DNA of 55,778 nt from Flavobacteriales bacterium (lineage in GTDB: Bacteria > Bacteroidota > Bacteroidia > Flavobacteriales_D > Sanyastnellaceae). The notes beneath the pieces are model-generated. The model made no database searches. It worked only from the letters and a program-made list of their open reading frames with translations, and was not told where the DNA came from. Location of the stretch: NCBI GenBank assembly GCA_030828175.1, contig JAURDB010000001.1, forward strand, positions 1 to 55,778. The letters are read 5' to 3'. The first letter of the stretch is position 1; each line of letters begins with the position of its first letter. Shown here piece after piece: positions 9,401 to 33,722 of the stretch. Position numbers and translations under genes: made by a program.

Positions 9401-9522
9401 CCGGCCCCCTGGGTGAAGTTCACTTTGACACGGCGTTGATGCCTTCGGGCGTGCATGTTCTCGAAGGCGAGAATAGACAAGGAATCCTCCGACGAAAGGA
9501 AGTGGTGAGAGCAGGCAATTGA
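6475..9522 (+). CDS. Secreted thermolysin-clan (M4/M36-like) zinc metalloprotease with MAM-like domain and T9SS C-terminal domain
   Basis: The ORF is 6391..9522. The start is probably 6475 or 6508 (signal peptide MIPFPRALLIALCFLLTGSVNSQ). The zinc motif VVFHEYGHG is followed by a downstream GAMGEGYADLW, giving a gluzincin HExxH...E arrangement. A C-terminal sorting-type beta-sandwich is present. Confidence 0.8.
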   Translation: MSDGNRRYISGMIPFPRALLIALCFLLTGSVNSQMANPYVHSDPMEVRLAPLWETPNEGQQSQWRKTGFWSQFKAEHPLWQAQFHPATATVHRAYGPAIPASNPTDWLEEQLEFAGWSSELGPWNTVAMGKHNMSRSVQMVEGRVVLGTEFVVKTAESGVVMWGAQCFENAAWPEDNAFLAEQELMDAATAGLDLSSMMAAMGEESLLPVLEEEGELRVYAFRPVKKVQVSGTREDGTPVQYATWVDMVTGQVWERQNQVRHIGKPHGKPAKKQVLSMGSPAMLQTLNCQITGTVHLTQPFEEAVEVGLENLWVQTQQGAANTAQGGMLTLDGDAPQQIGLDLMGLWSTVTSNGVTPNFEVTLEGDEVVTWDGTANIRELSAYHSVNRIHDHMQSWLPGFDGLDFALPTLIDVSGTCNAFYTPGDPSINFYSEGDGCNAFSLVADVVFHEYGHGINDLFYESLGSSFINGAMGEGYADLWAISLSENPILGEGCYSDDAESYIRRYDMDPKVYPQDLVGQVHADGEIICGAWYDTHLLMGGDWDLTRELFVEAYAGLQATNFDGNEGEAYVEVLLDVLQADDDNADLSDGTPNGAAILEGFGIHGITLFSNVDIGHVAEEYSPAGDPIVLDANALVLFPFSQYFGSCNVYYRSHVYEDWTEMPMVQTAGSTYSADIPAQETGTVLEYHFGITDIYGSVSAITPYSADNAANPNLPFNTIVGLSPVLIDDQDDYSEFGFWQLGLPEDNATTGQWESAIPVGSFSNPGDPSSICAPDEDHTPGDGIYAFITGVSPGADAGIGSNDVDEGSTTLQSESIDLTGLTTPVLSYWRWYVNAPASGANPGADWWQVSVSSDGGENWIKVEETLTQDISWRRNAFAIEDYVPLTDAFQIRFTASDSLRPDQGLQFDGGSLIEAAVDDLIIHDFVTSGLANQDLDHGIVAWPVPFSDRLHAAGWNPGTNVRLLDALGKEVAKIQAGPLGEVHFDTALMPSGVHVLEGENRQGILRRKEVVRAGN
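9289..9519 (+). other. T9SS (Por) C-terminal sorting domain of the metalloprotease
   Basis: The last ~77 aa are IVAWPVPFSDRLHAAGWNPGTNVRLLDALGKEVAKIQ...SGVHVLEGENRQGILRRKEVVRAGN. They show the usual 'P-N/V-P-F...L.D..G..V......G.Y.l' layout of type A T9SS CTDs. Confidence 0.6.
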
Positions 9523-11120: not shown

Positions 11121-11567
11121 TTATTCGCAAATGACCCCAAACTCCACCAGCAGTTGGAGGAGGTCATTGGTGCCAACGATGCCATCCGGCACGATGTCAG
11201 CCAAGCAACTTTGGTCCGTAGAGAAGACACAGGAACCATTGTCAACCTCTGCATTTGATTCATAATTGAATGCCGTGGGGTAAGTACATCCACAAGTTGC
11301 TGGATGATCCAGAATTGTGAATGAAGTGGAAGCAGTGGCACCTGAAGCGTCTTGAGCTGAGATGGTGTAATCTCCGGCAGGAAGGGCTGTTAGATCCAAA
11401 TTGGTCAGGTAGGTTACTTCACCTACCGCACCTGTCGGGGTCAATTCTACCAGACCGGTCGAACTACCAGAGCAGCGGGTGGAGTACGAAACTGCTTCAA
11501 GTGTGAATTGGGCTGAGGCTGTTGTTACGGACAACAAGAAGACCATGAGGCCGATAATCTTGGACAT
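11121..11567 (-). CDS. Small secreted protein: SprB-repeat-like domain + one Cys-framed 'CNY' module + single dockerin-like half-tail
   Basis: The ORF is 11121..11606. The start is at 11567 (MSKIIGLMVFLLSVTTASAQ). The segment CSGSSTGLVELTPTG...LPAGDYTISAQDASGATAS resembles a SprB repeat. GCTYPTAFNYESNAEVDNGSCVF is one copy of the module repeated in the neighbouring giants. The protein ends CLADIVPDGIVGTNDLLQLLVEFGVICE. Confidence 0.7.
   Translation of the reverse strand: MSKIIGLMVFLLSVTTASAQFTLEAVSYSTRCSGSSTGLVELTPTGAVGEVTYLTNLDLTALPAGDYTISAQDASGATASTSFTILDHPATCGCTYPTAFNYESNAEVDNGSCVFSTDQSCLADIVPDGIVGTNDLLQLLVEFGVICE
11124..11207 (-). other. Single dockerin-like half-module at the extreme C-terminus
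   Basis: The sequence is CLADIVPDGIVGTNDLLQLLVEFGVICE. It has one D-x-x-x-D-G-x-V-x-x-x-D-L-L segment bracketed by Cys, and the stop codon comes 1 residue after the last Cys. Confidence 0.5.
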
Positions 11568-11743
11568 GTGAAAAATTTGGTATAGTGAATTTACGGCTTT
11601 GCACAATAAGTACAGTTTTCCGCATCATCATAAAACGTGTAACAAATATAATATCCATCTAAACATCATATTTTGCAATGAAACGGGTTAATTGACCACC
11701 TAATAGTTTGTTCTCGTATTGGTACTCCGATTAACTTTAAACT

Positions 11744-14700
11744 ATGGACCAAATTCGCCTGAGCCTTTTGCTCATATACTGCTTCATAGCTGCAATCCCT
11801 CTTTCAGTTTGTGGACAGGCTTCCCCCATTTTCAATGCTTCCACCGGTACTGGATACCTGAGTATATCAGAAGCCATTCAATCCGCTTCTGAAGGGGATT
11901 TGATTACCCTGGGAGCCGTCACGTTCAACGAAAGACTCCTGATTCAAAAACCCATCACGCTCATCGGTGATGCTGCCGGGGGTACTGTTCTGGATGTGCG
12001 AGGAACCACGGGTTGGGGAATCTGGTTGGGTTCCAGTGGCATCACTATTGAGAATCTTACGGTTCTTTCGAACGTCAGCCATGAGGGATATGGTTTGCAT
12101 TGCGACCCCGGTACGACAGACCTGACGCTTCGAAATGTCCGCGTCCTCAACAACGGAACTTCTGGAATTGACCTGAATGGTCTGGTAGGTCCTGGAACGA
12201 ATTTGATTGAGGATTGTGAAGCGGTCAATTGTGCAGCTGGATTCGGTCTGGCTTTGAGCAGTTGTCAAAATGTCGTGGTCCGGAATTTCATCTCTTCCAA
12301 GAACGGTTTTGGCGACATCGGAATCCTGGAAAGTGCATACACAACAAATGATTCCGAGTCCATCACTTTTGAAGGTTCTCTTGAGCTTGATGGGCCACAG
12401 GCTGATGGCCTTGGAGGCATCATCATTCAATCCGACACCACGGTGATTGAACCGGGAATTGGCTTGGGTTTTGACATCGACATGAAGTCGGGACTGATTC
12501 ACCAATTGACAGGAACCACCACATATGACGGTGACCCATTGGGATATGTCCTCTGCAGTTCGTCCGTAGTTGCTGAACTTTCCGACAACCTTACCTCAGG
12601 ACTGGGCGTGGCTGACTTGCTCGGTCGGAATCTGGTCACCGGAGAAGTGGAGGTTTGGCCAGGGATGTCGCTTCAAGAAGCCTTGAATGCTGCCGCGAGT
12701 GATGACATCATTCGGGTGGCAAATCCGGGTCTGTACGACAGCACTGTGGTCAACGTCAACAAATCCATCACCATTCTGGGACCCAATGCTGGTTTGGCGG
12801 CCAATGATCCTGCTCGGACAACGGAAGCGGTTTTCTCAGGAGGATTGTCCATCAATGCATCGAATGTCACGGTGGATGGCATTCGACTGTTGGGGAAAAA
12901 CAATGCTCCATTTGGTCTTGAAGTCACTGCCGGAGTCACCGATGTCAATGTAAGTAACACCGTCATTCGGGGTTGGCTTGAAGAAAGTGGAGACTTCAAT
13001 GCCGTTGGCTTGCGCGCCAATGGGGGCGTCAATTTGACGGAGTGTTCGCTAAGGAACTGGCCCCTGGCTGCTGTTCTGAACAGCGGGGAAGTATCACTCT
13101 CAAATTGTCAGATTACAGACAACCGTGCAGGAGTCGAAATGAACAGTTCAAACGGGTTTTACGATGAAATGCGGGTCAACAATTGCACCCTCAGAAATGC
13201 CGGTGCTGACGCGTTCTTGATTTCGTCCACCGACCCAGCCGACAGCCTCGTGGTCATCGGGGGTACTGCCAATCTGCACTCCTACGCCTTCCGATTCGAC
13301 GACGATTGTGCCTTCAGGGTGGAAAATGGGGTCTATTCAGAATCAGAAGTGCAAATTTTGGGATTGGATACCGAGTCAAGAATCGCGCTTTGCGAGTCCA
13401 ATGACTTCAACAATCCTGCCATTGTCGTTGATGCTTGTACGGACGCATCTGCAACGAATTATGAGCCATGTGCCACCATTGATTCAGGGAACTGTTTGTT
13501 TGGTGGATGTACGGATCTCGGAGCGTGCAACTTTGACCCGGATGCAGCATCAGATGATGGAAGCTGTGAATTCCAGTCCTGTGCTGGATGTTTGAATCCC
13601 ATTGCATGTAATTACGATGCATCCGCCACCATCAGCAATGGTGGTTGTGAATTCCTTTCTTGTAGAGGATGCACGGATCCGTCAGCATTGAACTATGCCT
13701 CTTCGGCCACATATGATGACGGCTCTTGTTTGTTCCCCGGTTGCACCAACCCTGAGGCGGACAACTATGACGCAGATGCCAACTTCGACAACGGAGTGTG
13801 CTTCTTCTTTGGATGCACGGATCCCGGGGCTTGCAACTTTGATCCTCAAGCCAACTTGAACCTGGGAACCTGTGAATTCACCAGTTGTGCAGGCTGTTTG
13901 AACCCAAGGGCTTGCAATTATGATGCGACTGCGGTTATCGACGCCGGCAATTGTGACTTCACAAGCTGCAGGGGCTGCACCAATCCCGACGCATTGAATT
14001 ATGATGTGAATGCAACGGTAGATGACGGATCGTGTCGGATTCCCGGTTGTACGGATGCAACGGCCACCAATTATGATGCCGACGCCAACATCAACGACGG
14101 CTCCTGCATTTTCAGCGGCTGCCTGGATGCGTCTGCATGCAACTTCGATCCCAACGCAAGCATCAATGACGGAAGCTGCGAATTCACTTCTTGCGCAGGT
14201 TGCGCGATTGAGGGATTCTGCAACTACGACCCCAATGTCACGATACACGATGGCAGCCTTTGTGATTACTTGAGCTGTTGTGGTGACCCTGCGGCTACGA
14301 ACTACGATCCCGCCATCCTGCCTCAACTCACTTTTGGTTGTACCTACGGCATGTCAGCTGGGATGGCCTTCCTCGAGACATGCACGTTGCCCATTGCTTG
14401 CAATTACCTCGCGGATGCTCCTTGTGAATTCGACTCTTGCGCAGGTTGCACGGATGCCACTGCCTGCAATTACGACGCGGCAGCTACCCTCAGCACCAAT
14501 ACTTGCACATTCCCCATGGATCTCTACGGAGACGCCAATGTGGACTGTGACGGCAACTGCCTCAATGACACCGATGGTGACGGCATCTGCAATGAGGACG
14601 AAGTCAATGGCTGCACAGATGAGGGCGCCTGTAACTACGATGTCAATGCTACAGAAGACGACGGCTCATGTGAGACCACTTCGTGTGGTGGATGCACGGA

Positions 14701-16300
14701 TTCAGGCGCCTGTAACTTCGACAATACCGCCTTGTTGAACAATGGATCCTGCGAGTATGAGACGTGCTCGGGATGTACAGATGAAACCGCTTGCAATTAC
14801 GACGCTCTGGCTACCATCTCTGGAGAATGCACTTTCCCAATCGATACATACGGAACGGATGCTGTGGATTGTGATGGAAATTGTCTCGGCGATTCAGACG
14901 AAGACGGAGTGTGCGACGGGGATGAAATCCAAGGCTGCACGAACGCAAGTGCTTGCAATTTCAATGCAGCAGCCACGGATGATGATGGGTCATGTGACCT
15001 CCTTTCGTGCAAGGGATGCACGGACCCCACCTCCTGTAATTTCGATGCTTCAGCCACTGTTCCAGACAACAGCTGTGAGTATGAAAGTTGCGCAGGGTGT
15101 CAAGATCCGGCAGCATGCAACTATGATCCCAGCGCGACGATTGACGCGGCTTGTACTTTCCCTCTCGAGACGTACCTCGATTGTGACGGCAACTGTTTGG
15201 TTGATACAGACGGTGATGGTGTTTGTGAGCCCAATGAAGTGGGAGGATGTACCGATGCGGAGGCATGCAATTTCTCTGACACGGCAACCGACGATGATGG
15301 ATCGTGCGAATACATCAGCTGCGCGGGTTGCACCAATCCTGGCGCATGCAATTATCAGCCCTCGGCTACGATCAACGACGGAAGTTGCAATTACACTGAC
15401 TGTCAAGGATGCACCGATTCACAAGCTTGTAATTACGTTCCCGATGCCACAGTGGAAGATGGAAGCTGCATTTATGTGCTGGACCTCTACAATGTCACCT
15501 ATCTGACATGCGGGGGAGGCTGCATCAATGACACGGACGGCGACGGAGAATGCGATGAAGAGGAGCAAGTCGGTTGTTTGGATGCCTCAGCATGTAACTA
15601 CAATGCCAACGCTGAATTCGACGACGGCAGCTGCGAATTCACTTCGTGCGAGGGCTGTACCGACAATACGGCCTGTAATTACAATGAAGGCGCCCTGTAT
15701 GATGATGGAAGTTGTACCAACCCCGTCAACTTGTATGGTAAGGATTACGTCGACTGTTTCAATGTTTGTCTGAACGATGCTGACGGAGATGGCATCTGTG
15801 ATGAGGAGGAGTTGGGTTGCACCGATCCAACGGCCTGTAACTATGATCCCATTGCATCAAGCGATGACGGCTCGTGTTTCTATCCCAGTGAGGATTACCT
15901 GGATTGTGATGGAAATTGTTTGAACGATGCCGATGGGGACCTCGTTTGTGACGAGTTGGAAATCCTCGGATGTACGGACCCGGCAGCCTGTAGCTATGAC
16001 AACACAGCAACGGAAGATGACGGCTCATGTCAATATATCGTCAACGACTGTGATACATGTGTGGATGGCGTGATCGTGGATGGTGACGCCGATGATGATG
16101 GCATCTGTGATGCCGATGATGTTTGTCCTGGGGATTTCAACTCGGATGGAATCCGCAGTGCTTCTGATGTACTCGTGGTTTTGGCGGCCTATGGTTGTGA
16201 TACCGACTGTGGAGCTGCCGACCTGGACGGAAATGGTTTCGTGACGGCATCAGACGTTTTGGCCATGCTCAGTTACTTCGGTACTGTCTGCCCGAACTGA
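11744..16300 (+). CDS. Giant secreted protein (1518 aa): two right-handed parallel beta-helix domains + ~27 Cys-framed modules with TSP3-like spacers + double dockerin-like C-terminal tail
   Basis: The signal peptide is MDQIRLSLLLIYCFIAAIPLSVCGQ. There are two beta-helix starts (ISEAIQSASEGDLITLGAVTFNE...; SLQEALNAAASDDIIRVANPGLYDS...). From about aa 563 onward come tandem GCTDxxACNYDxxAxxDDGSC units and DCDGNCLNDTDGDGIC spacers. The protein ends ...VCPGDFNSDGIRSASDVLVVLAAYGCDTDCGAADLDGNGFVTASDVLAMLSYFGTVCPN. Confidence 0.9.
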   Translation: MDQIRLSLLLIYCFIAAIPLSVCGQASPIFNASTGTGYLSISEAIQSASEGDLITLGAVTFNERLLIQKPITLIGDAAGGTVLDVRGTTGWGIWLGSSGITIENLTVLSNVSHEGYGLHCDPGTTDLTLRNVRVLNNGTSGIDLNGLVGPGTNLIEDCEAVNCAAGFGLALSSCQNVVVRNFISSKNGFGDIGILESAYTTNDSESITFEGSLELDGPQADGLGGIIIQSDTTVIEPGIGLGFDIDMKSGLIHQLTGTTTYDGDPLGYVLCSSSVVAELSDNLTSGLGVADLLGRNLVTGEVEVWPGMSLQEALNAAASDDIIRVANPGLYDSTVVNVNKSITILGPNAGLAANDPARTTEAVFSGGLSINASNVTVDGIRLLGKNNAPFGLEVTAGVTDVNVSNTVIRGWLEESGDFNAVGLRANGGVNLTECSLRNWPLAAVLNSGEVSLSNCQITDNRAGVEMNSSNGFYDEMRVNNCTLRNAGADAFLISSTDPADSLVVIGGTANLHSYAFRFDDDCAFRVENGVYSESEVQILGLDTESRIALCESNDFNNPAIVVDACTDASATNYEPCATIDSGNCLFGGCTDLGACNFDPDAASDDGSCEFQSCAGCLNPIACNYDASATISNGGCEFLSCRGCTDPSALNYASSATYDDGSCLFPGCTNPEADNYDADANFDNGVCFFFGCTDPGACNFDPQANLNLGTCEFTSCAGCLNPRACNYDATAVIDAGNCDFTSCRGCTNPDALNYDVNATVDDGSCRIPGCTDATATNYDADANINDGSCIFSGCLDASACNFDPNASINDGSCEFTSCAGCAIEGFCNYDPNVTIHDGSLCDYLSCCGDPAATNYDPAILPQLTFGCTYGMSAGMAFLETCTLPIACNYLADAPCEFDSCAGCTDATACNYDAAATLSTNTCTFPMDLYGDANVDCDGNCLNDTDGDGICNEDEVNGCTDEGACNYDVNATEDDGSCETTSCGGCTDSGACNFDNTALLNNGSCEYETCSGCTDETACNYDALATISGECTFPIDTYGTDAVDCDGNCLGDSDEDGVCDGDEIQGCTNASACNFNAAATDDDGSCDLLSCKGCTDPTSCNFDASATVPDNSCEYESCAGCQDPAACNYDPSATIDAACTFPLETYLDCDGNCLVDTDGDGVCEPNEVGGCTDAEACNFSDTATDDDGSCEYISCAGCTNPGACNYQPSATINDGSCNYTDCQGCTDSQACNYVPDATVEDGSCIYVLDLYNVTYLTCGGGCINDTDGDGECDEEEQVGCLDASACNYNANAEFDDGSCEFTSCEGCTDNTACNYNEGALYDDGSCTNPVNLYGKDYVDCFNVCLNDADGDGICDEEELGCTDPTACNYDPIASSDDGSCFYPSEDYLDCDGNCLNDADGDLVCDELEILGCTDPAACSYDNTATEDDGSCQYIVNDCDTCVDGVIVDGDADDDGICDADDVCPGDFNSDGIRSASDVLVVLAAYGCDTDCGAADLDGNGFVTASDVLAMLSYFGTVCPN
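13430..16120 (+). repeat. Coding tandem-repeat array: ~27 degenerate 23-27-codon Cys-framed modules organised in ~108-codon super-repeats
   Basis: I counted the units by eye in the translation. The recurring consensus is [S/T]-C-x-G-C-T-[DN]-x-x-A-C-N-[YF]-[DN]-x-x-A-x-x-[DN]-D-G-S-C-x-[YF]. The 3' half (about 14440-16120) adds a DCDGNCLxDxDGDGxCDxxE spacer after every 1-3 units. Confidence 0.85.
16121..16297 (+). other. Cysteine-framed double dockerin-like C-terminal tail
   Basis: The sequence is VCPGDFNSDGIRSASDVLVVLAAYGCDTDCGAADLDGNGFVTASDVLAMLSYFGTVCPN. It has two EF-hand-like D-x-N-x-D-G-x-[IV]-x-x-S-D-V-L segments and 4 conserved Cys, and it lies at the extreme C-terminus. Confidence 0.7.
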
Positions 16301-16322
16301 TTCAACCCTCCTTTATGAAACG

Positions 16323-16348
16323 AAAAGGGCCGCATTGCGGCCCTTTTT
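16323..16348 (+). terminator. Rho-independent terminator after the 1518-aa gene
   Basis: The sequence is aaaa-GGGCCGC-att-GCGGCCC-ttttt. It forms a perfect 7-bp GC stem with a 3-nt loop, followed by a T5 run, 23 nt after the stop codon. Confidence 0.75.
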
Positions 16349-16415
16349 GCTTGTGGACATTCGATGAATTTCGAATTTTATTCGACCGAACCGCTCGAAT
16401 GATATACAAATGACC

Positions 16416-16423
16416 TATATTTG
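16416..16423 (+). promoter_or_regulatory. Bacteroidota-type -7 promoter box (TAnnTTTG) for the 16443 gene
   Basis: TATATTTG lies 20 nt upstream of ATG 16443 in an AT-rich spacer. Its position inside the longer ORF (16410) supports the start at 16443. I saw no clean -33 TTTG. Confidence 0.4.
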
Positions 16424-16442
16424 TAGTCGAAAGTCATATATT

Positions 16443-19379
16443 ATGCCTCGAACTCTATTCTCATCGCTGCTCTGTCTCTTGATGGCACCGATCATGGCCC
16501 AATCGGAATCCACGCAGCCCGTGACAAACGTGACGACCGGCGCAACTTTTGAAACCATTGCAGAGGCCTTGAACGTGGCGTCATCTGGTGACGTTTTGAA
16601 TTTGGCTGGTTACAGGTTTACAGAACACATTGCAATCGATGTACCTCTCACCTTAACGGGAGCAGAAGGTGGGACCACGGTCATTGACGTGTCGCAGCAG
16701 GATGGCTGGGGAATTACCCTTTCAAGCGACAACATCACCTTGAAAAACCTGTCCATCCTCGCCGGTGATGTGAATACGGCATATGCCATCCACAGTGAAC
16801 CCGGAATCACGGGGCTCACATTGGAAGACATAGCGGTTTACGATTCCCACAGAACATGCATTGACCTGAATGGATTGACGGGGCCGAGCGTAAATACCCT
16901 GAGAAACCTGACTGTTTCAGGCAGTTCCATTGGATTTGGCCTCGCCATGAGTTCCTGTTCCAACATGTTCATCGAGAACATCACGAGTTCAGACAATGGT
17001 TACGGTGACATTGCCATTATGGAATCCAATTACTATGACCAAGAAATATCCGACGTGGTATTCACTGGATTCCTTGATTTGGAGGGGCCTCAGAATTTGG
17101 GGGGAGGTGGCATTATTGTTCAGGTGAGTCCTGAAGAAGTGCCGGTTGGCGCCGGAGCAGGTTTTCCCATCAGCGTCAATTCAACGGGTTTTGATTACCT
17201 CTTGGAAGCACCCGGAGATTTGACCGGATGCATTTTGGTGCACAGTGAGGACGTCAGGGCCATTGCCCAGACACTCGGTGCAAATGTGACCCCCTTGGTA
17301 TCCTATGACTTGGTTACGCAAAACCTCGTCGTTTTCCCCGGGATGTCCATTCAAAGTGCCCTGGATGCAGCCTCCGATGGGGACGTCATCGAGGTGGACC
17401 CCGGATCCTTTGATTCTACTCCGTTGCAGATTGCGGGCAATGTCACCTTGAAAGGAGCCAACGCTGGTATTTCAGGGACTTCCACAGCCCGATCATCGGA
17501 AACGCTGGTGCAAGGCATTGTCGTAACGGATGGAACACCGCTCATCGACGGCATCCACATTTCCGGTGGAGCTGGAACCGCTGGACTCGTCGTTATGGAA
17601 GCAGCCGCCGGAGTGGAATTGCGCAACAGCATCATTTCTGGAAATGGGACGGAAACCGGTGTGATCTGCAGGAATTCATCCTTGCTGCACGATGTCGTAG
17701 TCGAAAGCTTTGACAAAGGCATCCAACATCTCTCTGGGGCATTGGTCATGGAATCCAGTGTCATCAAGGGAAATGGCACGGGGGTATCCATCGAGCACAC
17801 GTCTTCTTTTGCCGAAACCACCACGCTGCAAAACTGCCAACTGTTGAACACCGGTGGAACCGGCATCCTCGTTCAGTCGGGCGGGTCAAATGACCTGTTG
17901 ACGATTGAAAATTCCACGATTGAATTGCACGCCACAGGCTTGAACGTGACCGGCGACATCTCCCTGGCCATAAGCGGCAATGTCTTTGTGAATTCAGAGG
18001 ACCACACGATGGGCCTTGACAGGGAAGCCAGAATCGCACTTTGCGGCAGCAATGGATTCGAACCCGCTTTGCGCATCAACGGATGCACAGACAACAACGC
18101 AGACAATTTTGAGCCATGTGCCACTGTGGACCAAGGATGTGAATTTCATGGATGCACGGCACCCAAGGCTTGCAATTATGATGCCTCGGCGACGACCGAC
18201 GACGGAAGCTGTGACTTCATCACCTGTTCGGCTTGTCCACTGGGATTTGCCTGCAATTATGATCCCGATGCCGACCTCTACCGAGTAGAAGCATGTGAAT
18301 TTCTGGACTGCGGGGAAGGCATGGCAGGCAGTGGGGAAGACAGGGGCAATCTCGCTGTGGTAGAGGGGTGTACCATTCCACAAGCCTGCAACTTCAACCC
18401 GAACGCCGATTCTGACGATGGGAGCTGCAATTTTGGATGCTATGGCTGCCAAGATGAAGCCGCGTGCAATTTCGATGCAGTGTTTACCCAAGCTTCCAAT
18501 GAAACGTGCCTGTACCAGCAGGACCTGCACAATTCACCCTACGTGGGCTGTGACGGGGCATGTGTGAACGACACCAATGAAAATGGAGTGTGCGATGAAG
18601 AAGAAGTCACAGGCTGTACGGATGAGGGGGCTTGCAATTTCAGCGCTTCCGCCACTTTGGATGTCGGAGATTGTGAGTATGCATCCTGTGCGGGTTGCAC
18701 CAATCCGGGCGCTTGCAACCACGATCCCTCGGCCACCCTTACGGATGCTTCTTGTGACTACACTTCTTGCGCTGGATGCACGGATTCAGGGGCGTGCAAC
18801 TACAACGCGATGGCCAGCATCGATGATGGCACTTGTTCCTATCCCATCGACTTGTACAACAAGCCATGGGTGGACTGTACGGCGACTTGCCTGAATGATG
18901 CCGATGGCGATGGCGTTTGTGATGAGGAGGAGACCAGCGGTTGCATGGAGAGTGGTGCGTGCAATTACGATGAGGAGGCGACCGACGACGATGGAACGTG
19001 CGAATATGAGTCTTGCTCAGGATGCACGGATGACGCCTACTGCAATTTCAATCCAGGCGCCACCATCAACGACGGAAGTTGTGCGGCTCCGGAAGACCTG
19101 TTCCCCAATGCCATTGTGGACGGAGTTTCCACGGTGGACTGTCTCGGACGCTGTCTCAATGATGAAGATGGCGATGGGATCTGTGATGAGGCAGAAATCG
19201 TCTGTCCTGGAGACCTCAATGGAGACGGTCTCCGGGGAGCTTCAGACATTCTTGTGATGTTGAGCGCCTTTGGGTGCACGGAGGGATGCGGATCACCAGA
19301 TTTGAATGGAGACGGCATCGTCGCTGCCAGTGATGTCCTGATGGCCCTTTCCACCTTCGGGGTGGCATGTCCTCAGTAA
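16443..19379 (+). CDS. Giant secreted paralogue (~978 aa): two beta-helix domains + ~11 Cys-framed modules with TSP3-like spacers + double dockerin-like tail
   Basis: The ORF is 16410..19379. The start is at 16443 (MPRTLFSSLLCLLMAPIMAQ). It is collinear with the 11744 protein across the beta-helix head (e.g. GWGITLSSDNITLKNLSIL vs GWGIWLGSSGITIENLTVL; GFGLAMSSCSN vs GFGLALSSCQN). It ends VCPGDLNGDGLRGASDILVMLSAFGCTEGCGSPDLNGDGIVAASDVLMALSTFGVACPQ. Confidence 0.9.
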   Translation: MPRTLFSSLLCLLMAPIMAQSESTQPVTNVTTGATFETIAEALNVASSGDVLNLAGYRFTEHIAIDVPLTLTGAEGGTTVIDVSQQDGWGITLSSDNITLKNLSILAGDVNTAYAIHSEPGITGLTLEDIAVYDSHRTCIDLNGLTGPSVNTLRNLTVSGSSIGFGLAMSSCSNMFIENITSSDNGYGDIAIMESNYYDQEISDVVFTGFLDLEGPQNLGGGGIIVQVSPEEVPVGAGAGFPISVNSTGFDYLLEAPGDLTGCILVHSEDVRAIAQTLGANVTPLVSYDLVTQNLVVFPGMSIQSALDAASDGDVIEVDPGSFDSTPLQIAGNVTLKGANAGISGTSTARSSETLVQGIVVTDGTPLIDGIHISGGAGTAGLVVMEAAAGVELRNSIISGNGTETGVICRNSSLLHDVVVESFDKGIQHLSGALVMESSVIKGNGTGVSIEHTSSFAETTTLQNCQLLNTGGTGILVQSGGSNDLLTIENSTIELHATGLNVTGDISLAISGNVFVNSEDHTMGLDREARIALCGSNGFEPALRINGCTDNNADNFEPCATVDQGCEFHGCTAPKACNYDASATTDDGSCDFITCSACPLGFACNYDPDADLYRVEACEFLDCGEGMAGSGEDRGNLAVVEGCTIPQACNFNPNADSDDGSCNFGCYGCQDEAACNFDAVFTQASNETCLYQQDLHNSPYVGCDGACVNDTNENGVCDEEEVTGCTDEGACNFSASATLDVGDCEYASCAGCTNPGACNHDPSATLTDASCDYTSCAGCTDSGACNYNAMASIDDGTCSYPIDLYNKPWVDCTATCLNDADGDGVCDEEETSGCMESGACNYDEEATDDDGTCEYESCSGCTDDAYCNFNPGATINDGSCAAPEDLFPNAIVDGVSTVDCLGRCLNDEDGDGICDEAEIVCPGDLNGDGLRGASDILVMLSAFGCTEGCGSPDLNGDGIVAASDVLMALSTFGVACPQ
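18081..19198 (+). repeat. Coding tandem-repeat array (~11 Cys-framed modules, 3 TSP3-like spacers)
   Basis: The units run GCTDNNADNFEPCATVDQGCEF / GCTAPKACNYDASATTDDGSCDF / ... / GCMESGACNYDEEATDDDGTCEY / SCSGCTDDAYCNFNPGATINDGSC. The spacers are GCDGACVNDTNENGVCDEEE, DCTATCLNDADGDGVCDEEE and DCLGRCLNDEDGDGICDEAE. Confidence 0.85.
19199..19376 (+). other. Cysteine-framed double dockerin-like C-terminal tail
   Basis: The sequence is VCPGDLNGDGLRGASDILVMLSAFGCTEGCGSPDLNGDGIVAASDVLMALSTFGVACPQ, with the same 4-Cys frame as 16121..16297. Confidence 0.7.
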
Positions 19380-19392
19380 TGGCATGAAATTT

Positions 19393-19428
19393 CCCTCCCG
19401 AGGCTGGCCGTCTGCGACCTCGGGAGGG
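19393..19428 (+). terminator. Strong hairpin between the 16443 and 19478 genes (possible partial terminator or processing site)
   Basis: CCCTCCCGAGG-(14 nt)-CCTCGGGAGGG forms a perfect 11-bp stem starting 14 nt after the stop codon. No T-run follows it. Confidence 0.4.
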
Positions 19429-19477
19429 CAATGCATTCATAATGGATGCATCTTCAGGCGGAACTACCAAAACCTCG

Positions 19478-22400
19478 ATGCGCCGCCCCATCCCCAATCC
19501 GTGGCGGGAGAATTGCCCTTGGCTTGCCATTCTTCTGGCAGGGTGGTGGATGTGTGGCCCAATGGCAATGCAAGCCCAGCATTGGAGCGATGGACTGCTT
19601 CCAGGCGCGGATTGGACCGCGGCATTCGATCAATTCGATAGCACCTGGCAGGACAGCATCCCTGAAAAAGGAAAAGGGTTCAAACCCTTCATGCGATGGC
19701 GAGAATTCGCAGAAAAGCGTTTTGCCTTTGAGGGGAGCGAGGAATGGTCGCCCAACGCCCCTTGGCAAGCCACACAGTGGGAAAGAGAAGGCAGGGCGGC
19801 CCGAACCCAGCCCCCGGATACGCTGTGGAGAAGCGCTGTACCCGCTGGGGTTCCCCTGGTGGGCGGAGCCGGACGCGTCAATCGGGTGGTGGTCCACCCC
19901 CTTGATACCAGCCGATGGCTCGCCTGTGCACCGAGTGGTGGACTCTGGCAATCGCAAACATCCGGCAACAGCTGGTCTCTCATGGGAACGCAGGATTGGG
20001 CGGGAATGGGGGTTTCTGACGCCGCTTTCCATCCAAACGACCCCGATTGCATACTGGCGGCCACGGGGGATTCCGACTTCGGAAGTGCATACGCCATTGG
20101 GCTGATGCAAACCTGTGATGGCGGAAACACCTGGAGTCCCACAGGACTTCAGTTCGAAATGGAGCAAACCTTGACCTGCAGCCGCGTTCATCGAAAGGCG
20201 GGGGACCCCCAACAGATCCTTGTGGCCACAGGCGATGGCATCTGGTTGAGCGAAGACGACGGCGTTACGTTCAGCAAGACCTTGGAAGGGGTTTGTTCCG
20301 ACCTGATTCCCCACCCGGGCGATTCAGCAGTATGGCATGCAGCGCGCAGGCCAGGAGAGTTGTTTCGATCGACCGATGGCGGACGCCATTGGGAGTCCAT
20401 TCCCGGAATGCCCTCGGCGTATCTCGCCAGTCGATATGTGCTTGCCACGACACCTGCCGACCCCTCTCTTGTAGCCGCCATCGCATCCAAGAGCGGAAGC
20501 CAAGGATTGCTTGGGTTGTACCTCAGCGCAGACAGCGGAGCGACTTTCTCTGCACTGCCGGATTTGCCCAACCTGTTGGGGTGGACCGCAGACGGCTCCG
20601 ATTTGGGCGGGCAAGGCTTTTACGACCTCGCCCTGGCCGTGGACCCGACCGACCCCCATCATATGGTGGCAGGGGGTGTCAACCTCTGGGAGACATGGGA
20701 CGGGGGAGTGTCCTGGAACTGCACCGGCCATTGGTTTGGGGGAGGAGAGGCGCCATACGTGCATGCAGATCACCATGCTGTGACCTTCATTCCAGGGACC
20801 TCCGACTGGGTCAGTGCACATGATGGAGGCGTCAATCGATTGGGCGCAGCACAAAATGTAGACCTGAGCGAAGGCCTCGAGGTAGGACAGGTATATCGAC
20901 TGGCTTGGTCCGAGGCACAGCCGAACCAACTCCTCTCAGGAGCGCAAGACAATGGGATCAACCTCCTCAAGGACGGAGTGCATGCACAGGTCATCGGCGC
21001 CGATGGTTTTCACTGTTTGATCGATCCGGATGCACCAGACAACCTGATTGCATCAGAGTACTATGGCAAGGCACACCGCTCTACGGATGGTGGATGGAGC
21101 TGGGCTCCGTGGATATTGAGCAACGGGGACGGGGTGAACGAGCAGGGAGATTGGAACACCCCCTTGGCCCAGTCTCCCGTGGTTCCCAATCGAATCCATG
21201 TTGCAAAACACAGGGTTTATTGGACCGACGATGCAGGCATTACTTGGGGACAAACCCAGGCTTTGCCTGGTAATGAAATCGAAGTCTTGGCATTGTCGTT
21301 CACCGAAGACAGCATCCTTGCGGTGGCCAAGGGAAGCTTCGCTTTCATCACCCATGACCTGGATCAATGGACCCCTTTGACTGGGTTGCCCGGCATGCCC
21401 GTCCAAGACCTTTTGTTCGATGCGGGTTCTAGTGATGTGCTGTGGATGGCCTTCGGCGGATATTCGGCAGATGATCGCATCTGGCAATCTTTGGATGGGG
21501 GGGATTCCTGGGATTCATTCAGCGAGGGATTGCCCGCTTTGCCTGTCAATGCGCTCACCCAGGACCCAGGATCTGGAGACCTGTACGCAGGAACAGACGC
21601 TGGAGTCTATGTGAGGCCAGCGGGAAGCAGCAGCTGGACACCCTACAAATCAGGCCTGCCTGAAGTGCTGTGCAGCGACATCGGCATTCGACAGTCCACC
21701 GGGGAATTGCTGCTGGCGACCTACGGCAGAGGTCTTTGGAAAGCACCACTGCATACCCCCCCTGCAAGGGATGCAGGGATTGTTGCCATCCATGGGACGA
21801 AAGCTGTGAGATGTTCTGGCCCGCTTTCAGTTGCGACGGAAGTGCGCAATTGCGGCAGTGACACGTTGGTGGCAGTGAGTTTGCTCTGGAATGGAACAGA
21901 CACCGTTACCTATGGAATGCTGCTTCCACCCAATGCCGAAACGAGCCTGAATTGGCCCAACAGCTCCAGGGCTGCGGTTCCGGCAGGAGATCAGCTCGTG
22001 GTCCGCATTGTCAATGTGGTCGGCGCCGATGGAAATTGGAGCCAGGGAACCATTGAGTCTGGATTTGATGACGTGCCGGAAAACGATGTCTTGGGTGCAA
22101 CCTGGGAACACAGGGAGGGAACGGGGTGGGTGACCATGTCCACACTCGCAGACTGCAACCCCAGGGAATCTGCATGGGCCATCGCGGATACCACTGGCGA
22201 AATCCAATACCGAAGACAACATTTCCCCATCGAGTTGGCCATCATGGATTCACTCTGTTTGGGCCACGGATGCTATGAAGTCGTGCTGCATGACCAATCC
22301 CAAAATGGGTTCGCCGGGCCTCAATGCGGTTCACTCGGGTCCATGGAGCTTCTGTCTGCAACAGGCGACACGATTTGGTCCTTGTTGGACCCATCCTCTG

Positions 22401-22726
22401 CAGGGGTTGCATTTTCATCAGGCCTGGGCGGATCATTTTGCTTGCCGATGGCCGGGTGGGTAGGATGCACTGAGCCTGGCGCATGCAATTTCAACCCGGC
22501 TGCCTCTGTCGATGACGGCACCTGCATCATGGAATGCCACGACGCGCAGCCATGTCCAGAGGACCTCGATGGAGATGGCCTGTACGGAGCAACAGACATA
22601 CTGGCTGTGCTCTCCGAATTCGGCTGTATGTCAGGTTGCAGCATGGACATCACCGGCGACGGAACCGTATCTGCCAATGACGTCCTTGCCTTGTTGGCAT
22701 TGTACGGCGAATCATGTGTCCCATGA
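19478..22726 (+). CDS. Secreted BNR/Asp-box beta-propeller protein (sortilin/Ycf48-like) + Ig/CARDB-like region + one Cys-framed module + double dockerin-like tail
   Basis: The ORF is 19442..22726. The likely start is 19478 (MRRPIPNPWRENCPWLAILLAGWWMCGPMAMQAQ). There are at least 8 Asp-box-like S/T-x-D-x-G-x-[TS]-[WF] motifs (CDGGNTWSP, SEDDGVTFSK, STDGGRHWES, SADSGATFSA, TWDGGVSWNC, STDGGWSWAP, TDDAGITWGQ, SLDGGDSWDS). The C-terminus is GCTEPGACNFNPAASVDDGTC...PCPEDLDGDGLYGATDILAVLSEFGCMSGCSMDITGDGTVSANDVLALLALYGESCVP. Confidence 0.85.
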   Translation: MRRPIPNPWRENCPWLAILLAGWWMCGPMAMQAQHWSDGLLPGADWTAAFDQFDSTWQDSIPEKGKGFKPFMRWREFAEKRFAFEGSEEWSPNAPWQATQWEREGRAARTQPPDTLWRSAVPAGVPLVGGAGRVNRVVVHPLDTSRWLACAPSGGLWQSQTSGNSWSLMGTQDWAGMGVSDAAFHPNDPDCILAATGDSDFGSAYAIGLMQTCDGGNTWSPTGLQFEMEQTLTCSRVHRKAGDPQQILVATGDGIWLSEDDGVTFSKTLEGVCSDLIPHPGDSAVWHAARRPGELFRSTDGGRHWESIPGMPSAYLASRYVLATTPADPSLVAAIASKSGSQGLLGLYLSADSGATFSALPDLPNLLGWTADGSDLGGQGFYDLALAVDPTDPHHMVAGGVNLWETWDGGVSWNCTGHWFGGGEAPYVHADHHAVTFIPGTSDWVSAHDGGVNRLGAAQNVDLSEGLEVGQVYRLAWSEAQPNQLLSGAQDNGINLLKDGVHAQVIGADGFHCLIDPDAPDNLIASEYYGKAHRSTDGGWSWAPWILSNGDGVNEQGDWNTPLAQSPVVPNRIHVAKHRVYWTDDAGITWGQTQALPGNEIEVLALSFTEDSILAVAKGSFAFITHDLDQWTPLTGLPGMPVQDLLFDAGSSDVLWMAFGGYSADDRIWQSLDGGDSWDSFSEGLPALPVNALTQDPGSGDLYAGTDAGVYVRPAGSSSWTPYKSGLPEVLCSDIGIRQSTGELLLATYGRGLWKAPLHTPPARDAGIVAIHGTKAVRCSGPLSVATEVRNCGSDTLVAVSLLWNGTDTVTYGMLLPPNAETSLNWPNSSRAAVPAGDQLVVRIVNVVGADGNWSQGTIESGFDDVPENDVLGATWEHREGTGWVTMSTLADCNPRESAWAIADTTGEIQYRRQHFPIELAIMDSLCLGHGCYEVVLHDQSQNGFAGPQCGSLGSMELLSATGDTIWSLLDPSSAGVAFSSGLGGSFCLPMAGWVGCTEPGACNFNPAASVDDGTCIMECHDAQPCPEDLDGDGLYGATDILAVLSEFGCMSGCSMDITGDGTVSANDVLALLALYGESCVP
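22550..22723 (+). other. Cysteine-framed double dockerin-like C-terminal tail
   Basis: The sequence is PCPEDLDGDGLYGATDILAVLSEFGCMSGCSMDITGDGTVSANDVLALLALYGESCVP. Confidence 0.7.
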
Positions 22727-27360: not shown

Positions 27361-27864
27361 TCAATCTTTCGTCAGCGGAATCTTGATTCCCTCAATGGGG
27401 CATCCCACGGCGTCGGTGCGCGGCACACTCACGGGCACGCCTGCCATCAACTCGGAAAGGGCCTCGTGCAGGTCCCTGCGGCGGGTGCGGTTCTTTCGTC
27501 TGCCGGGAGCGAAGTACCGGTCATTGATCCGCCCTCGGTAGACAACCGAGTCCCGGGCATCCAGAACGAAAACTTCGGGTGTCCAGAGGGCTCCCAGCCG
27601 TTCCGCCCATCCGGAAGTATCGGGCTGCAGAGACATGGAGAGTCCATATACGGCGTCGAATTCCGCAATCTGCTCTGCACGTGTGGAGGGGTTGGGAAAC
27701 AAGCCCACGAACGCCACGGGGGCATCCGCGAATTCCAATTCCATTGTGCGCAGGTCGTAGGTCATGTCCTGGCATATCGGACACAGCGGTGCCAGGAAAA
27801 TCAGGACGCGATAAAGGGCCGAAGAAGGGGACACAGCAGACACCAATTCAACAGCTGTCACCAA
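27361..27864 (-). CDS. Thioredoxin-fold redoxin (AhpC/TSA-like) with CPIC motif
   Basis: 167 aa. It has VLIFLAPLCPICQD (CxxC) in a thioredoxin-like context and sits between the two PHM-like paralogues. The ATG start lacks an obvious signal peptide, and the ORF overlaps the upstream gene by 17 nt, so the start is uncertain. Confidence 0.65.
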   Translation of the reverse strand: MVTAVELVSAVSPSSALYRVLIFLAPLCPICQDMTYDLRTMELEFADAPVAFVGLFPNPSTRAEQIAEFDAVYGLSMSLQPDTSGWAERLGALWTPEVFVLDARDSVVYRGRINDRYFAPGRRKNRTRRRDLHEALSELMAGVPVSVPRTDAVGCPIEGIKIPLTKD

Positions 27865-29296
27865 AGTTGCCCAAAAGGGTCAGGACGTCCGAGACGGTGA
27901 TGGCACCATCGCCGTCGACGTCCACATCACAGTTCTGGAGACACCCGAAATCCGCAAGCAACATCAAGACGTCCGACACCCCGATGATGCCGTCACCCGA
28001 GATGTCACCTGGGCACCCTGTGGCAACGGGACCCAGTGCCGTGTTTTCATCTCCCTCTTGGTAGGGAACCAGGTCCAGAAAGACGAAGAACATCTCGTCC
28101 TCCGTTCCTTCACCAAATGTGACCCATTGGGGCGGGTCGTTGGGGTTGAAAGGGTTGGAGGCGGTATTGTCATATGTGGCCTCTCCATGCAACGTATATC
28201 CCTCGGGCACCTTGGTCAGGTGGGTGAAAGTGAAGAATCCCTGCCAATTGAAATCCCATGCGGGTATGGAAATCAAAGGGATGGTGTCTTGGTTGTCGGG
28301 GGATGTGGCATAGACCAGCCAGGAAGAACCGATCAGGTGGCAATGCGGGGCAATGCTGATCAGGCTGACGTCTGCGGTGACCGGAAGCGTCCCGTGGAAA
28401 TGGGAAACCTGCCCCGGTGGAAGGATGAAGGGGGCATCCAAATGCTGGGGTCCCATGATGGCGGTGATGACCTCCCGCTCGATTGGCACATCGGACAAGA
28501 ACACGTTCACCTCGGTCAAATCGGTTTCCGCAACGGGAGTCGGGCCGTAGTGCATTTGCATGAGCAGGTCGGAGCCCGCAGGCAGGGTCCGGCCAATTCC
28601 CGGCGGATAGCTCACGCTCAAGGCGCCGGGGACCCAGGCACCGAAAAACGAGCTTTCGGCGTCGAAGCCGAATCCGCCAAAACTCTCGTAACCGGGACCC
28701 GGTTCAGCCGCATCGAGTTGGGCCGCCGTTCCCGATACATCGAGGCCGAGGATGGCGTGGTGAGCGACGTTGCCGTTTCCTGGTTCCACCTCCAGGGCCC
28801 GAATGGCCACGTCCTCTCCGAATCCAGATGGCATCACGAAGACCTGGTATTGATCCGTCATATCGCCCTCGTGGGTGTAAGGCTCAGGCATGGCGAGCAC
28901 CGCGTCTGGCGCACCCAGCAGGCTTCCATCGGGGAAGTCGGGAAGTCCCGGGTTGTCAGCCGGATCACCTTCCGGTTTGCCCGCATCCACCCATGCCTGA
29001 AGGGTCGCCTTCTGCTCGGGCGTGAGTACATTTTCCCCCACGAAGTGGCGGTAGTCCGCATCGGGCGACCATGGCGGCATGTAGCCGATGGACGTCACAT
29101 AGGCGATGAACTCGCCATACGCTTGCACCTCTGAAAATGAAGTGAACGGCATGGGCGCGATTTCGCCCGGCCGATGACATCCTGTGCAATGGTTGTGGAT
29201 GATGGGCGCCACATCCGCGTGATAGGTCACGGTCTGTGCACACACTTCCAAGCGCAGAGAAAAAAGAAGGGCCAGTAATGGCAACAGGCGCGGCAT
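27848..29296 (-). CDS. Secreted CxxCH-motif / PHM-DBH-like protein, paralogue carrying a double dockerin-like tail instead of a T9SS CTD
   Basis: The ORF is 27848..29587. The start is at 29296 (MPRLLPLLALLFSLRLEVCAQ). It carries CTGCH, NVAHHAILG, LLMQMHYGP, APHCHLIG and TEDEMFFVF. It is collinear with the 25784 protein up to ...YQEGDEN, then ends GCPGDISGDGIIGVSDVLMLLADFGCLQNCDVDVDGDGAITVSDVLTLLGNFGDSC. Confidence 0.8.
   Translation of the reverse strand: MPRLLPLLALLFSLRLEVCAQTVTYHADVAPIIHNHCTGCHRPGEIAPMPFTSFSEVQAYGEFIAYVTSIGYMPPWSPDADYRHFVGENVLTPEQKATLQAWVDAGKPEGDPADNPGLPDFPDGSLLGAPDAVLAMPEPYTHEGDMTDQYQVFVMPSGFGEDVAIRALEVEPGNGNVAHHAILGLDVSGTAAQLDAAEPGPGYESFGGFGFDAESSFFGAWVPGALSVSYPPGIGRTLPAGSDLLMQMHYGPTPVAETDLTEVNVFLSDVPIEREVITAIMGPQHLDAPFILPPGQVSHFHGTLPVTADVSLISIAPHCHLIGSSWLVYATSPDNQDTIPLISIPAWDFNWQGFFTFTHLTKVPEGYTLHGEATYDNTASNPFNPNDPPQWVTFGEGTEDEMFFVFLDLVPYQEGDENTALGPVATGCPGDISGDGIIGVSDVLMLLADFGCLQNCDVDVDGDGAITVSDVLTLLGNFGDSC
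27851..28018 (-). other. Cysteine-framed double dockerin-like C-terminal tail
   Basis: The sequence is GCPGDISGDGIIGVSDVLMLLADFGCLQNCDVDVDGDGAITVSDVLTLLGNFGDSC, and the stop codon directly follows the last Cys. Confidence 0.7.
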
Positions 29297-33026: not shown

Positions 33027-33722
33027 ATGAGCCGTGTTTCTACCTGCCTCCTTGCATTCTCTTTTGCATCCATCGTTCCTCAATTTGGCGTCAACTCCGC
33101 AGCACTTGCGCAATGTGACTCTCTGGACTTCAATCTTCTGTGTGAAGATGGCGCGCTGGTCAACGATGCCATTTTCGCTTGTGGTTTCGATTGCATTTTC
33201 GCCGGAGACCTGAGCGCATGCTTCTCCAATTGCATCTCTGCCGCCATCCCTACGATGAGCACGGGTTGCGTGGGATGCTTTGCAGAGCAGAGCACCTGTG
33301 CCCAGGACAATTGCTTTTTCGTTTGTGGTTTCGGGAGTGCTGCGGATTGTGAAGCGTGCATCCTGGCGAATTGTCAATCCCAATTCGAAGATTGTGCGGG
33401 CATCGTGGACATGGATGGAGATGGAGAGAGCGTCATTTGTGATTGCGACGACAGCGAATCGAGCGTTTTCCCGGGCGCCCCTGCGACAGCCTCCGGTTTG
33501 GACAACAATTGCGACGGCATCATCAGCCTCGAGGAAATCCTCTGCGCGATCAACCTGAACCTGGACCTGAATGAGGACCTGTTCATCACGGTGGCAGATG
33601 TCTTGTTGGTCCTGGCCGACTTCGGATGTTTGGTCGGCTGCGGGTCCGATGTCAATGGGGATGGGGCAGTCACAGTAAGCGATGTACTGGAGCTGCTCGG
33701 CGGCTTCGGTGAAGGCTGTTGA
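33027..33722 (+). CDS. Small secreted cysteine-rich protein with MopE-like metal-binding motif and double dockerin-like tail
   Basis: 231 aa. The signal peptide is MSRVSTCLLAFSFASIVPQFGVNSAALAQ. A ~110-aa segment is packed with Cys. The motif CDCDDSESSVFPGAPATASGLDNNCDG matches my recollection of the 'putative metal-binding (MopE) motif' DCDDxxxxxxPGAxExxxGxDNNCDG. The protein ends ...ADVLLVLADFGCLVGCGSDVNGDGAVTVSDVLELLGGFGEGC. Confidence 0.7.
   Translation: MSRVSTCLLAFSFASIVPQFGVNSAALAQCDSLDFNLLCEDGALVNDAIFACGFDCIFAGDLSACFSNCISAAIPTMSTGCVGCFAEQSTCAQDNCFFVCGFGSAADCEACILANCQSQFEDCAGIVDMDGDGESVICDCDDSESSVFPGAPATASGLDNNCDGIISLEEILCAINLNLDLNEDLFITVADVLLVLADFGCLVGCGSDVNGDGAVTVSDVLELLGGFGEGC
33540..33719 (+). 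other. Cysteine-framed dockerin-like C-terminal tail (first half degenerate)
   Basis: The sequence is ILCAINLNLDLNEDLFITVADVLLVLADFGCLVGCGSDVNGDGAVTVSDVLELLGGFGEGC. Confidence 0.6.

Follow-up and report, generated by a model that had tools for sequence, protein, structure and literature searches.

Four adjacent genes for exported proteins with a shared cysteine module and a cysteine-clamped dockerin-like tail in a marine Flavobacteriales lineage

The four genes and their heads

The 55,778-nt stretch of DNA analysed here (the window) is 99% identical to the metagenome-assembled genome (MAG) Flavobacteriales bacterium BS301-5m-G28, which belongs to an uncultured marine lineage. It contains four adjacent genes, here called g1 (11121..11567, minus strand), g2 (11744..16300, plus strand), g3 (16443..19379, plus strand) and g4 (19478..22726, plus strand). 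A preliminary description, made from the sequence alone, assigned signal peptides, a common Cys-framed module and a common C-terminal tail to all four products. The open reading frames (ORFs) lie exactly at the coordinates given there, and the signal peptides are confirmed; all are of the signal peptidase I (SPI) type, end in AQ or GQ and are kept in orthologues. Comparison of orthologues shows no conserved lipobox in the signal peptides of g1-g4. Lipoprotein anchoring of g2 was considered and rejected, as the Cys of its signal peptide is not kept in orthologues and a lipobox is absent. Where the source annotation names these proteins at all, it calls them 'hypothetical protein'.

The product of g1 is an exported protein of 148 amino acids (aa). 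It consists of a signal peptide, one SprB-like immunoglobulin (Ig) unit, one Cys module (11223-11291, minus strand) and a half dockerin, i.e. a single Cys-framed EF-hand segment (11127-11207, minus strand). The SprB-like head suggested for g1 in the preliminary description is weakly matched: the 37-residue model of the SprB repeat (PF13573) gives E 0.013 and 15.6 bits, against a cut-off of 28. By eye, the pattern C.G...G...Y...aG.Y.v is there and the closing Cys is missing. Orthologues of g1 in syntenic loci are 61-83% identical.

Both g2 and g3 encode beta-helix proteins on the plus strand. The 1518-aa exported g2 protein has a double beta-helix head (aa 1 to ~560). Its stalk (13436-16120) comprises ~27 Cys modules and acidic DxDxDG inserts, and its Cys-clamped dockerin tail (16124-16291) consists of two segments. 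Across species its length (1516-1519 aa) and its number of strict module matches (22-24) are both conserved. The 978-aa g3 protein has two right-handed beta-helix domains (aa 25-545), a stalk of ~10 modules (18081-19202) and again a two-segment dockerin tail (19203-19370). The two proteins are collinear paralogues, as had been proposed, with 37% identity through the head into the stalk. The g3 head matches Pfam Beta_helix (PF13229) at E 3.8e-10, with 40 bits against a cut-off of 25.9, and its AlphaFold2 (AF2) model shows two tandem beta-helices with a predicted local distance difference test (pLDDT) score of ~90. Beta-helix heads of this group are matched by Pfam Beta_helix and NosD, and orthologues add a faint Pel9A-like match. 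One family listed for the orthologues, PF22842, was considered as a possible model of the Cys module; it turned out to be this Pel9A-like beta-helix, that is, the head.

Right-handed beta-helices are found in tandem in the PL6 alginate lyases AlyGC (5gkd) and Patl3640 (7o77), in Pel9A (1ru4) and in the GH55 laminarinase 4pew. The structure search suggested in the preliminary description does return such enzymes for the g3 head: they are the best Foldseek matches (E 5e-6 to 1e-3), with two-domain PL6 lyases first at E 5e-6, and GH55, Pel9A, AlgE epimerases and NosD also found. The likeness is one of fold, at only 10-12% identity and with no sequence-level match in the PDB, and NosD and adhesin-like beta-helices score nearly as well. 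Because of this, catalytic residues of PL6 and PL9 cannot be mapped reliably onto the head. Five polar residues of helix 1 are invariant (H117, D141, N143, D189 and Q227), a hint that they may form a putative site. In the sequence-level PDB search the g2 head gave nothing usable, and the g3 profile matched through its tail only, apart from a weak and probably spurious match (E 0.024) between one module and the Cys-rich region of MPEG1.

The g4 protein (1082 aa, exported) carries a sortilin/VPS10-BNR beta-propeller head with GH74-like similarity and further beta-rich domains. Behind these come a single Cys module (22463-22531) and a dockerin tail of two segments (22553-22717), all on the plus strand. 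The BNR head named in the preliminary description is well supported: the match to Sortilin-Vps10/BNR (PF15902) has E 4.5e-20 and 72.3 bits, against a cut-off of 33. The NCBIfam model F510_1955 glycosylhydrolase gives 79.6 bits, below its cut-off of 175, and the GH74 xyloglucanase 6p2n is matched at 5e-8 over residues 130-268 only. Taken with the predicted folds, these matches suggest that the heads may serve glycan binding or processing.

The cysteine-framed module and the dockerin-like tail

The module that forms the stalks is 24-27 residues long and has the consensus GCTDxxACNYDxxAxxDDGSCxF. A hidden Markov model (HMM) built from its obvious copies finds it in all four proteins, as the preliminary description had claimed (1 copy in g1, ~27 in g2, ~10 in g3 and 1 in g4), and the E-values of single copies reach 1e-15. 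A six-frame translation of the window contains no copies outside g1-g4, and no Pfam or NCBIfam family model matches the module. Outside the window it is widespread. When 1.84 billion representative proteins were searched exhaustively by HMMER with a supra-repeat of three modules, 13,292 proteins matched at E <= 1e-3; 1,585 of them did so at E <= 1e-30, and some are as long as 6,618 aa. When ten clusters of module proteins were sampled, one had named members, and every name was 'hypothetical protein'.

Where module position 8 is Cys, an extra linker Cys is present in 46% of modules, and where position 8 is not Cys this falls to 1.4%. Since the two cysteines co-occur, the module probably exists in two forms, one with 2 Cys and a single disulfide, the other with 4 Cys and two disulfides. 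Acidic DxDxDG loops are interspersed among the modules and recall the calcium sites of thrombospondin type 3 repeats; the TSP3_bac model itself matches one orthologue only, at 17 bits. Thrombospondin type 3 repeats, EGF-like arrays and SprB-type giant adhesins likewise consist of short Cys-framed repeats in long arrays with acidic DxDxDG inserts, and likewise occur in giant exported proteins (up to 4,600 aa in the fetched loci for the module studied here, and 6,618 aa in the representative library). Unlike these, the module is an independent and unnamed family.

Tandem Repeats Finder detects no DNA-level tandem repeat in the DNA of the module stalks. As module number is also conserved between species, the repeats are old. 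Recent repeat expansion or gene conversion in the stalk was considered and rejected on the same two grounds.

Dockerins are C-terminal modules of secreted modular enzymes; they consist of two segments of ~22 residues, each with a DxNxDGxxxxxD loop followed by a helix. When aligned, the C-termini of g2-g4 read CPxDxNGDGxxxxxDxLxxLxxFGCxxxCxxDxxGDGxxxxxDxLxxLxxFGxxC, and the same loop-and-helix segment, ~22 residues long, occurs twice in these three proteins and in the products of two further genes of the window. The calcium-ligand positions of the loops (1, 3, 5 and 12) are canonical. What distinguishes this tail is a set of four invariant cysteines, one pair closing each segment. The preliminary description gave all four proteins a common tail; the tail is indeed present in all of them, with two segments in g2-g4 and a single one in g1. 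A lone Cys-framed segment of this kind also ends giant proteins of the lineage.

The tail is a Cys-clamped dockerin by sequence and predicted fold. Its sequence matches the solved dockerin 2y3n_B at E 2e-5, or E 4e-6 with an orthologue profile. An AF2 model of the g4 module and tail, made with a 66-sequence alignment, has a mean pLDDT of 88.9 and predicted helices at residues 43-50 and 71-78. When this model is compared with the PDB by Foldseek, the top 17 matches are all dockerin-containing chains, most of them in cohesin complexes. The best match is again 2y3n_B, with probability 1.00; over 52 columns the predicted model has a template modelling (TM) score of 0.79 and a root-mean-square deviation (rmsd) of 1.3 A.

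There are also differences from known dockerins (PF00404; 2y3n_B, 6kgc, 2ccl). Beside the conserved Cys pair of each segment, these are the Gram-negative marine host, the existence of a free-standing single-segment form and low scores with family models. Against a cut-off of 22.9 bits, Dockerin_1 (PF00404) gives 19.8 bits for g2, 13.6 for g3 and no match for g4. The nearest curated family is NF041540 of NCBIfam, described as GC-type dockerin domain-anchored protein, which, like the tail, has a G-C motif behind helix 1. The five double tails of the window all align with it, at 21.9, 22.8, 27.9, 25.9 and 22.8 bits, below its cut-off of 29; four of them span model positions 1-67 and the tail of the gene at 33027 spans 13-67. 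The half tail of g1 is not matched by NF041540.

Conservation of the tail is high. Among g3 orthologues it is the most conserved region at 76% identity, followed by the stalk (68%), helix 1 (67%) and helix 2 (44%), and it is nearly invariant within families of giant proteins. A tail-profile search of a 5.8-billion-protein database returned mostly short C-terminal fragments, which were used for alignment and not for architecture.

Many exported proteins of Bacteroidota end in the C-terminal domain (CTD) of the T9SS (type IX secretion system), a beta-sandwich of ~75-100 aa. The possibility that the tail is such a CTD was rejected, as neither PF18962 nor TIGR04183 matches g1-g4 at E <= 0.1 in Pfam and NCBIfam searches.

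Conservation, transcription and distribution of the parts

Gene order from YebC through g1, g2, g3 and g4 to RluA is identical in ~20 related loci, including 18 GTDB species genomes. The full shared order comprises an M36-like peptidase, two small genes, YebC, g1-g4, an RluA-like gene, a thiolase, an NlpC/P60 gene, a T9SS-CTD protein and a tail-bearing CxxCH protein. The cluster stands at the same place in every syntenic locus recovered; the presence/absence polymorphism for which the preliminary description proposed a search is thus not seen. Module and tail counts per protein are equal across these loci, and the heads have diverged to 42-70% identity (87-90% for YebC). The preliminary description held that these are not unrelated hypothetical proteins. 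Conservation of adjacency and architecture in ~20 related loci agrees with this and argues for a functional unit.

Three further loci (L015, L018 and L019, from three species) contain a longer g3-like paralogue of 1,150-1,170 aa, and the fetched sequence around it includes none of the cluster or flanking genes of the window. A protein with beta-helix, stalk and tail therefore exists outside the four-gene cluster as well.

Base composition sets most of the cluster apart from its neighbours. G+C content at third codon positions (GC3) is 0.50 in g1, 0.53 in g2 and 0.58 in g3, below all 26 flanking genes (0.59-0.75, mean 0.66); total GC of g1-g3 is also below that of every flanking gene. Given their amino-acid content and the codon preferences of the flanks, a GC3 of 0.65-0.67 would be expected for these three genes. 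The shortfall of 0.07-0.18 means that the A/T bias, which the preliminary description had judged by eye, is real and synonymous in g1-g3. It had been ascribed to the whole cluster; g4, with a GC3 of 0.61, lies at the low edge of the flank range and is only marginally low. Further genes for exported proteins in the window are likewise at the low end. In 14 loci the deficit is kept against a background GC3 of ~0.55-0.85, with the cluster genes following their host (0.45-0.80). Since the deficit persists in relatives, it belongs to these genes themselves and does not record a recent transfer.

The first two genes diverge from a 176-nt spacer (11568..11743). This is as AT-rich as the preliminary description stated, with 31.8% GC compared to ~56% for the window, and both its length (153-180 nt) and its GC (0.31-0.44) are conserved in 14 orthologues. 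TAnnTTTG is the -7 promoter element of Bacteroidota. It occurs 8 times in the 55.8 kb, counting both strands, mostly 15-80 nt upstream of an ORF start (10367, 16416, 23848, 40842, 44405 and, on the minus strand, 11650 are among these sites); this distribution fits such an element. A scan for sigma-70-type promoters gave fewer sites in the window than in shuffled sequence and is uninformative for Bacteroidota.

Boxes of the form TATATTTG had been noted before g1 (11650-11643, minus strand, inside the spacer) and before g3 (16416..16423, plus strand, 20 nt before the ATG). Both are present, and they differ in conservation. The g3 box, followed by TAG, is exact in 12/16 orthologous spacers and reads TATATTTA in the other 4. 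Orthologous spacers do not conserve the g1 box at the aligned position, and it is specific to this genome. Instead, three other blocks of the g1/g2 spacer are kept across species: TGAAT.TA near the g1 start, TGTAA(N4-5)TATAATA in mid-spacer and (A/T)TTTG ~45 nt before the g2 ATG. As these differ from the g1 box, the true g1 promoter may lie elsewhere.

An intrinsic terminator with an 11-bp stem and a U run follows g2 (16323..16348, plus strand, z = -4.6); Rfam recognises this hairpin and no known RNA element in the intergenic regions. The g3-g4 spacer holds two hairpins on the plus strand, the first (19393-19428) terminator-like and without a U run, the second at 19433-19449, and the invariant motif GCAnCTTCAnGnGG (19448-19461, plus strand) ~20 nt before the g4 start codon. 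In nine loci (the window and L001, L004, L006, L008, L010, L016, L021 and L023), 13 of 19 pairs of the hairpins keep pairing through two-sided (compensatory) changes. The spacer contains neither a TAnnTTTG box nor an Rfam match, and the element could combine a terminator with a conserved leader, or be a g4 promoter of a non-canonical kind. Because g1 is read away from g2, an intrinsic terminator closes g2 and a conserved box of its own precedes g3, g1-g4 are neighbouring separate transcription units and not one operon.

The same parts occur elsewhere in the window and the genome. Firstly, a 482-aa exported protein (27848..29296, minus strand) combines a CxxCH haem-binding motif with a two-segment tail (27851-28015). 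By eye its His-rich motifs recall the copper monooxygenases PHM and DBH, and Pfam contains no family that matches it. Its orthologues are syntenic in all relatives at 74-92% identity. In relatives the gene adjoins one of the AhpC/redoxin family. Secondly, a 231-aa Cys-rich exported protein (33027..33722, plus strand) combines a MopE-type putative metal-binding motif (PF11617, E 9e-8) with a tail (33564-33719). The tail also occurs together with MopE motifs in metagenomic fragments and in some homologues of the g4 head.

Thirdly, other contigs of the same MAG encode module proteins of up to 4,400 aa; in this MAG and its relatives together, exported module proteins of 1,000-4,600 aa have up to ~100 modules. 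Nearly all giants of this clade end in a single Cys-framed segment that is almost invariant per family. Those at L060 (2897-16066), L048, L066, L076, L028, L030, L033, L038 and L046 are 2,000-4,600 aa long with 30-108 modules. Many giants share an N-terminal domain (YGLEVEVVAEH...TTY...D.LSSV.GD) as well as the single EF-hand segment at the end.

The preliminary description saw in the four genes a dedicated system. With the tail on two more genes of the window, giant module proteins elsewhere in the MAG and the module in more than 13,000 proteins, this does not hold: the cluster is not a closed, dedicated system, and its parts are a lineage-wide kit.

Two kinds of C-termini are seen among the module-rich representative proteins P0178, P0179, P0193, P0197, P0198, P0200, P0205 and P0208. 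Some of these proteins have Pro/Ala/Arg-rich, apparently membrane-anchored C-termini and a non-bacterial, possibly algal, appearance; in others the C-terminus is an SVRC motif reminiscent of the Fibrobacter paralogous domain. Given these C-termini, the range of the module may cross phylum or even domain boundaries.

An M36-like metallopeptidase with an HEYGH motif and a sub-threshold Pfam match (6511-9522, plus strand) flanks the cluster, as does a 526-aa protein (25784-27364, minus strand) whose T9SS sorting domain is near threshold at 25.2 bits; T9SS cargo and dockerin-tailed proteins therefore coexist in one neighbourhood. Another beta-helix protein (46014-47543, plus strand; Pfam Beta_helix E 1.7e-7, weak DUF5123) has neither module nor tail and lies among housekeeping genes.

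Proposed roles in docking, sorting and the display of heads

The architecture of T9SS cargo is well described: a signal peptide, a head, repeats and a C-terminal appendage. The proteins of the cluster resemble such cargo (VPS10-, PKD-domain and SprB-type proteins with PF18962 or TIGR04183) in this order of parts and, for g4, in the head family (31-37% identity), and differ in having the dockerin-like tail in place of the CTD. The same exchange is seen within families. In the g4-head family, the Cys-clamped double dockerin terminates all 36 close homologues and every member of a middle tier (31-37% identity), while 56 of 72 distant homologues carry the PF18962 sorting domain; source names among the latter include 'T9SS type A sorting domain-containing protein', 'VPS10 domain-containing protein' and 'PKD domain-containing protein'. 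Of the best 149 module proteins, 57 have an EF segment at the end and at least 28 a T9SS-type CTD, with no protein carrying both; those with the CTD come from other lineages. In this lineage, then, the dockerin tail occupies the position of the CTD, though T9SS cargo is still encoded next door. Because these heads and stalks belong to T9SS cargo elsewhere in Bacteroidota, the products of g1-g4 are probably extracellular, and the extracellular destination implied by the preliminary description has this homology behind it.

The reading that best joins these observations, and that we give roughly even chances, is that glycan-directed heads are carried on a disulfide-braced stalk and docked through the tail to a receptor. 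The proteins are exported by Sec, and each is built from three parts, namely a head, a spacer of 1 to ~27 modules and a C-terminal dockerin. After export they would form their disulfides and reach the cell exterior. Loaded with calcium, the dockerin would attach without a covalent bond to a receptor that all share, which could be a cohesin-like protein or some other component of the surface. The stalk, braced by disulfides and probably stabilised by calcium, would hold the heads away from the cell, and the heads would bind or process algal polysaccharide or particles. The tail is thus likely to mediate a specific calcium-dependent interaction, with the stalk acting as a spacer.

Several observations weigh against the docking of glycan-directed heads. 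Pfam scans find no cohesin or other candidate receptor among the proteins of the window, which also holds no scaffoldin with multiple cohesins, and brief inspection of the genes next to giant module genes of the same MAG (L046, L060) shows no obvious conserved partner. The tail misses the Dockerin_1 cut-off narrowly and that of NF041540 as well. As it is not a T9SS CTD, no known outer-membrane route can be assigned. The likeness of the beta-helix heads to lyases and hydrolases is limited to the fold, and the AF2 model of the stalk has low confidence (pLDDT 25-65). The CxxCH haem motif on the tail-bearing protein at 27848-29296 also fits periplasmic life. Finally, separate promoters and a terminator mean that g1-g4 need not be co-expressed.

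Alternatively, the tail could be mainly a sorting or export signal that replaces the T9SS CTD, rather than a cohesin-binding dockerin. It always stands at the extreme C-terminus, it alternates with PF18962 on the g4-head family and on module proteins, almost never occurring together with it, it is the most conserved region of g3 and it is attached to many unrelated heads; the absence of a cohesin in the window is also as expected. With T9SS cargo still encoded nearby, such a signal would define an alternative route and not be a consequence of T9SS loss. We nevertheless consider this unlikely. A helical EF-hand pair is unlike the beta-sandwich CTDs that the T9SS recognises, we know of no system that uses a helical EF-hand-pair export signal, and nothing points to cleavage of the tail. 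One protein, P0377, even combines a weak tail-segment match (position not mapped) with a T9SS-type C-terminus.

A third explanation is that these are ordinary soluble secreted proteins which share promiscuous domains. Tail and module would then only stabilise them in calcium-rich, oxidising seawater, with no common anchor and no joint system. Separate transcription units, the presence of tail and module on many unrelated genes in the window and genome-wide, and the lack of a receptor in the window are all consistent with this. It is improbable because adjacency, order and even module number have been conserved while the heads diverged, and because the tail is conserved more than the heads. In addition, the dockerin fold is, to our knowledge, a protein-protein interaction module in every solved case.

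A bolder proposal is that the tail marks a system for surface attachment or sorting, so far undescribed, in marine Flavobacteriales, and that it has repeatedly replaced the T9SS CTD on the same heads. Lone EF-hands pair. Double tails would dock enzymes on the surface, and the single-segment tails of g1 and of the 2,000-4,600-aa giants would pair in trans, so knitting a calcium-dependent protein matrix around the cell with the disulfide mini-module as its building unit. This is speculative, and we regard it as doubtful.

Least probable by far, and largely refuted, is the horizontally acquired genomic island that the term 'island' of the preliminary description implied: the low GC and GC3 of g1-g3 and the AT-rich g1/g2 promoter spacer speak for it, and against it stand the constant placement between YebC and RluA/thiolase, a GC3 that tracks each host genome with a small constant deficit, the similarly low GC3 of other exported-protein genes, the absence of DNA-level tandem repeats, the absence of a tRNA gene at the cluster border (the only one in the window is 8 kb off) and the absence of integrase and transposase families in Pfam scans of 30 other ORFs of the window. 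The cluster is a vertically inherited, syntenically fixed and stable part of the chromosome, not a mobile island.

Dockerin-like modules outside cellulosomes are known, according to papers that cite a survey across the three domains of life. NCBI curates the GC-type dockerin family. Our literature searches covered 'GC-type dockerin', dockerins of marine Flavobacteria and the motif strings of the module, and found no paper on any of these. Four elements thus appear to be undescribed: the Cys-clamped dockerin variant with its free-standing half form, the systematic alternation of the clamped dockerin with the T9SS CTD on homologous heads, the very large unnamed family of Cys mini-modules and the conserved four-gene cluster.

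Marine Flavobacteriales are major degraders of algal polysaccharide, and current accounts of the enzymes at their surface rely almost wholly on SusC/D systems and T9SS cargo. The lineage studied here puts a dockerin-like, Cys-clamped calcium module where relatives have the T9SS sorting domain, on many exported proteins with beta-helix, propeller and metal-binding-motif domains among their heads, and it uses a repeat without a name in any database to build proteins thousands of residues long. At a minimum, two annotatable domains, the Cys module and the Cys-clamped dockerin, are thereby defined, and they cover thousands of 'hypothetical proteins' in marine metagenomes. If the tail does dock or sort, it would represent a second, unrecognised route for the display of enzymes and adhesins in Bacteroidota, and would extend cohesin-dockerin-type assembly to abundant ocean bacteria.

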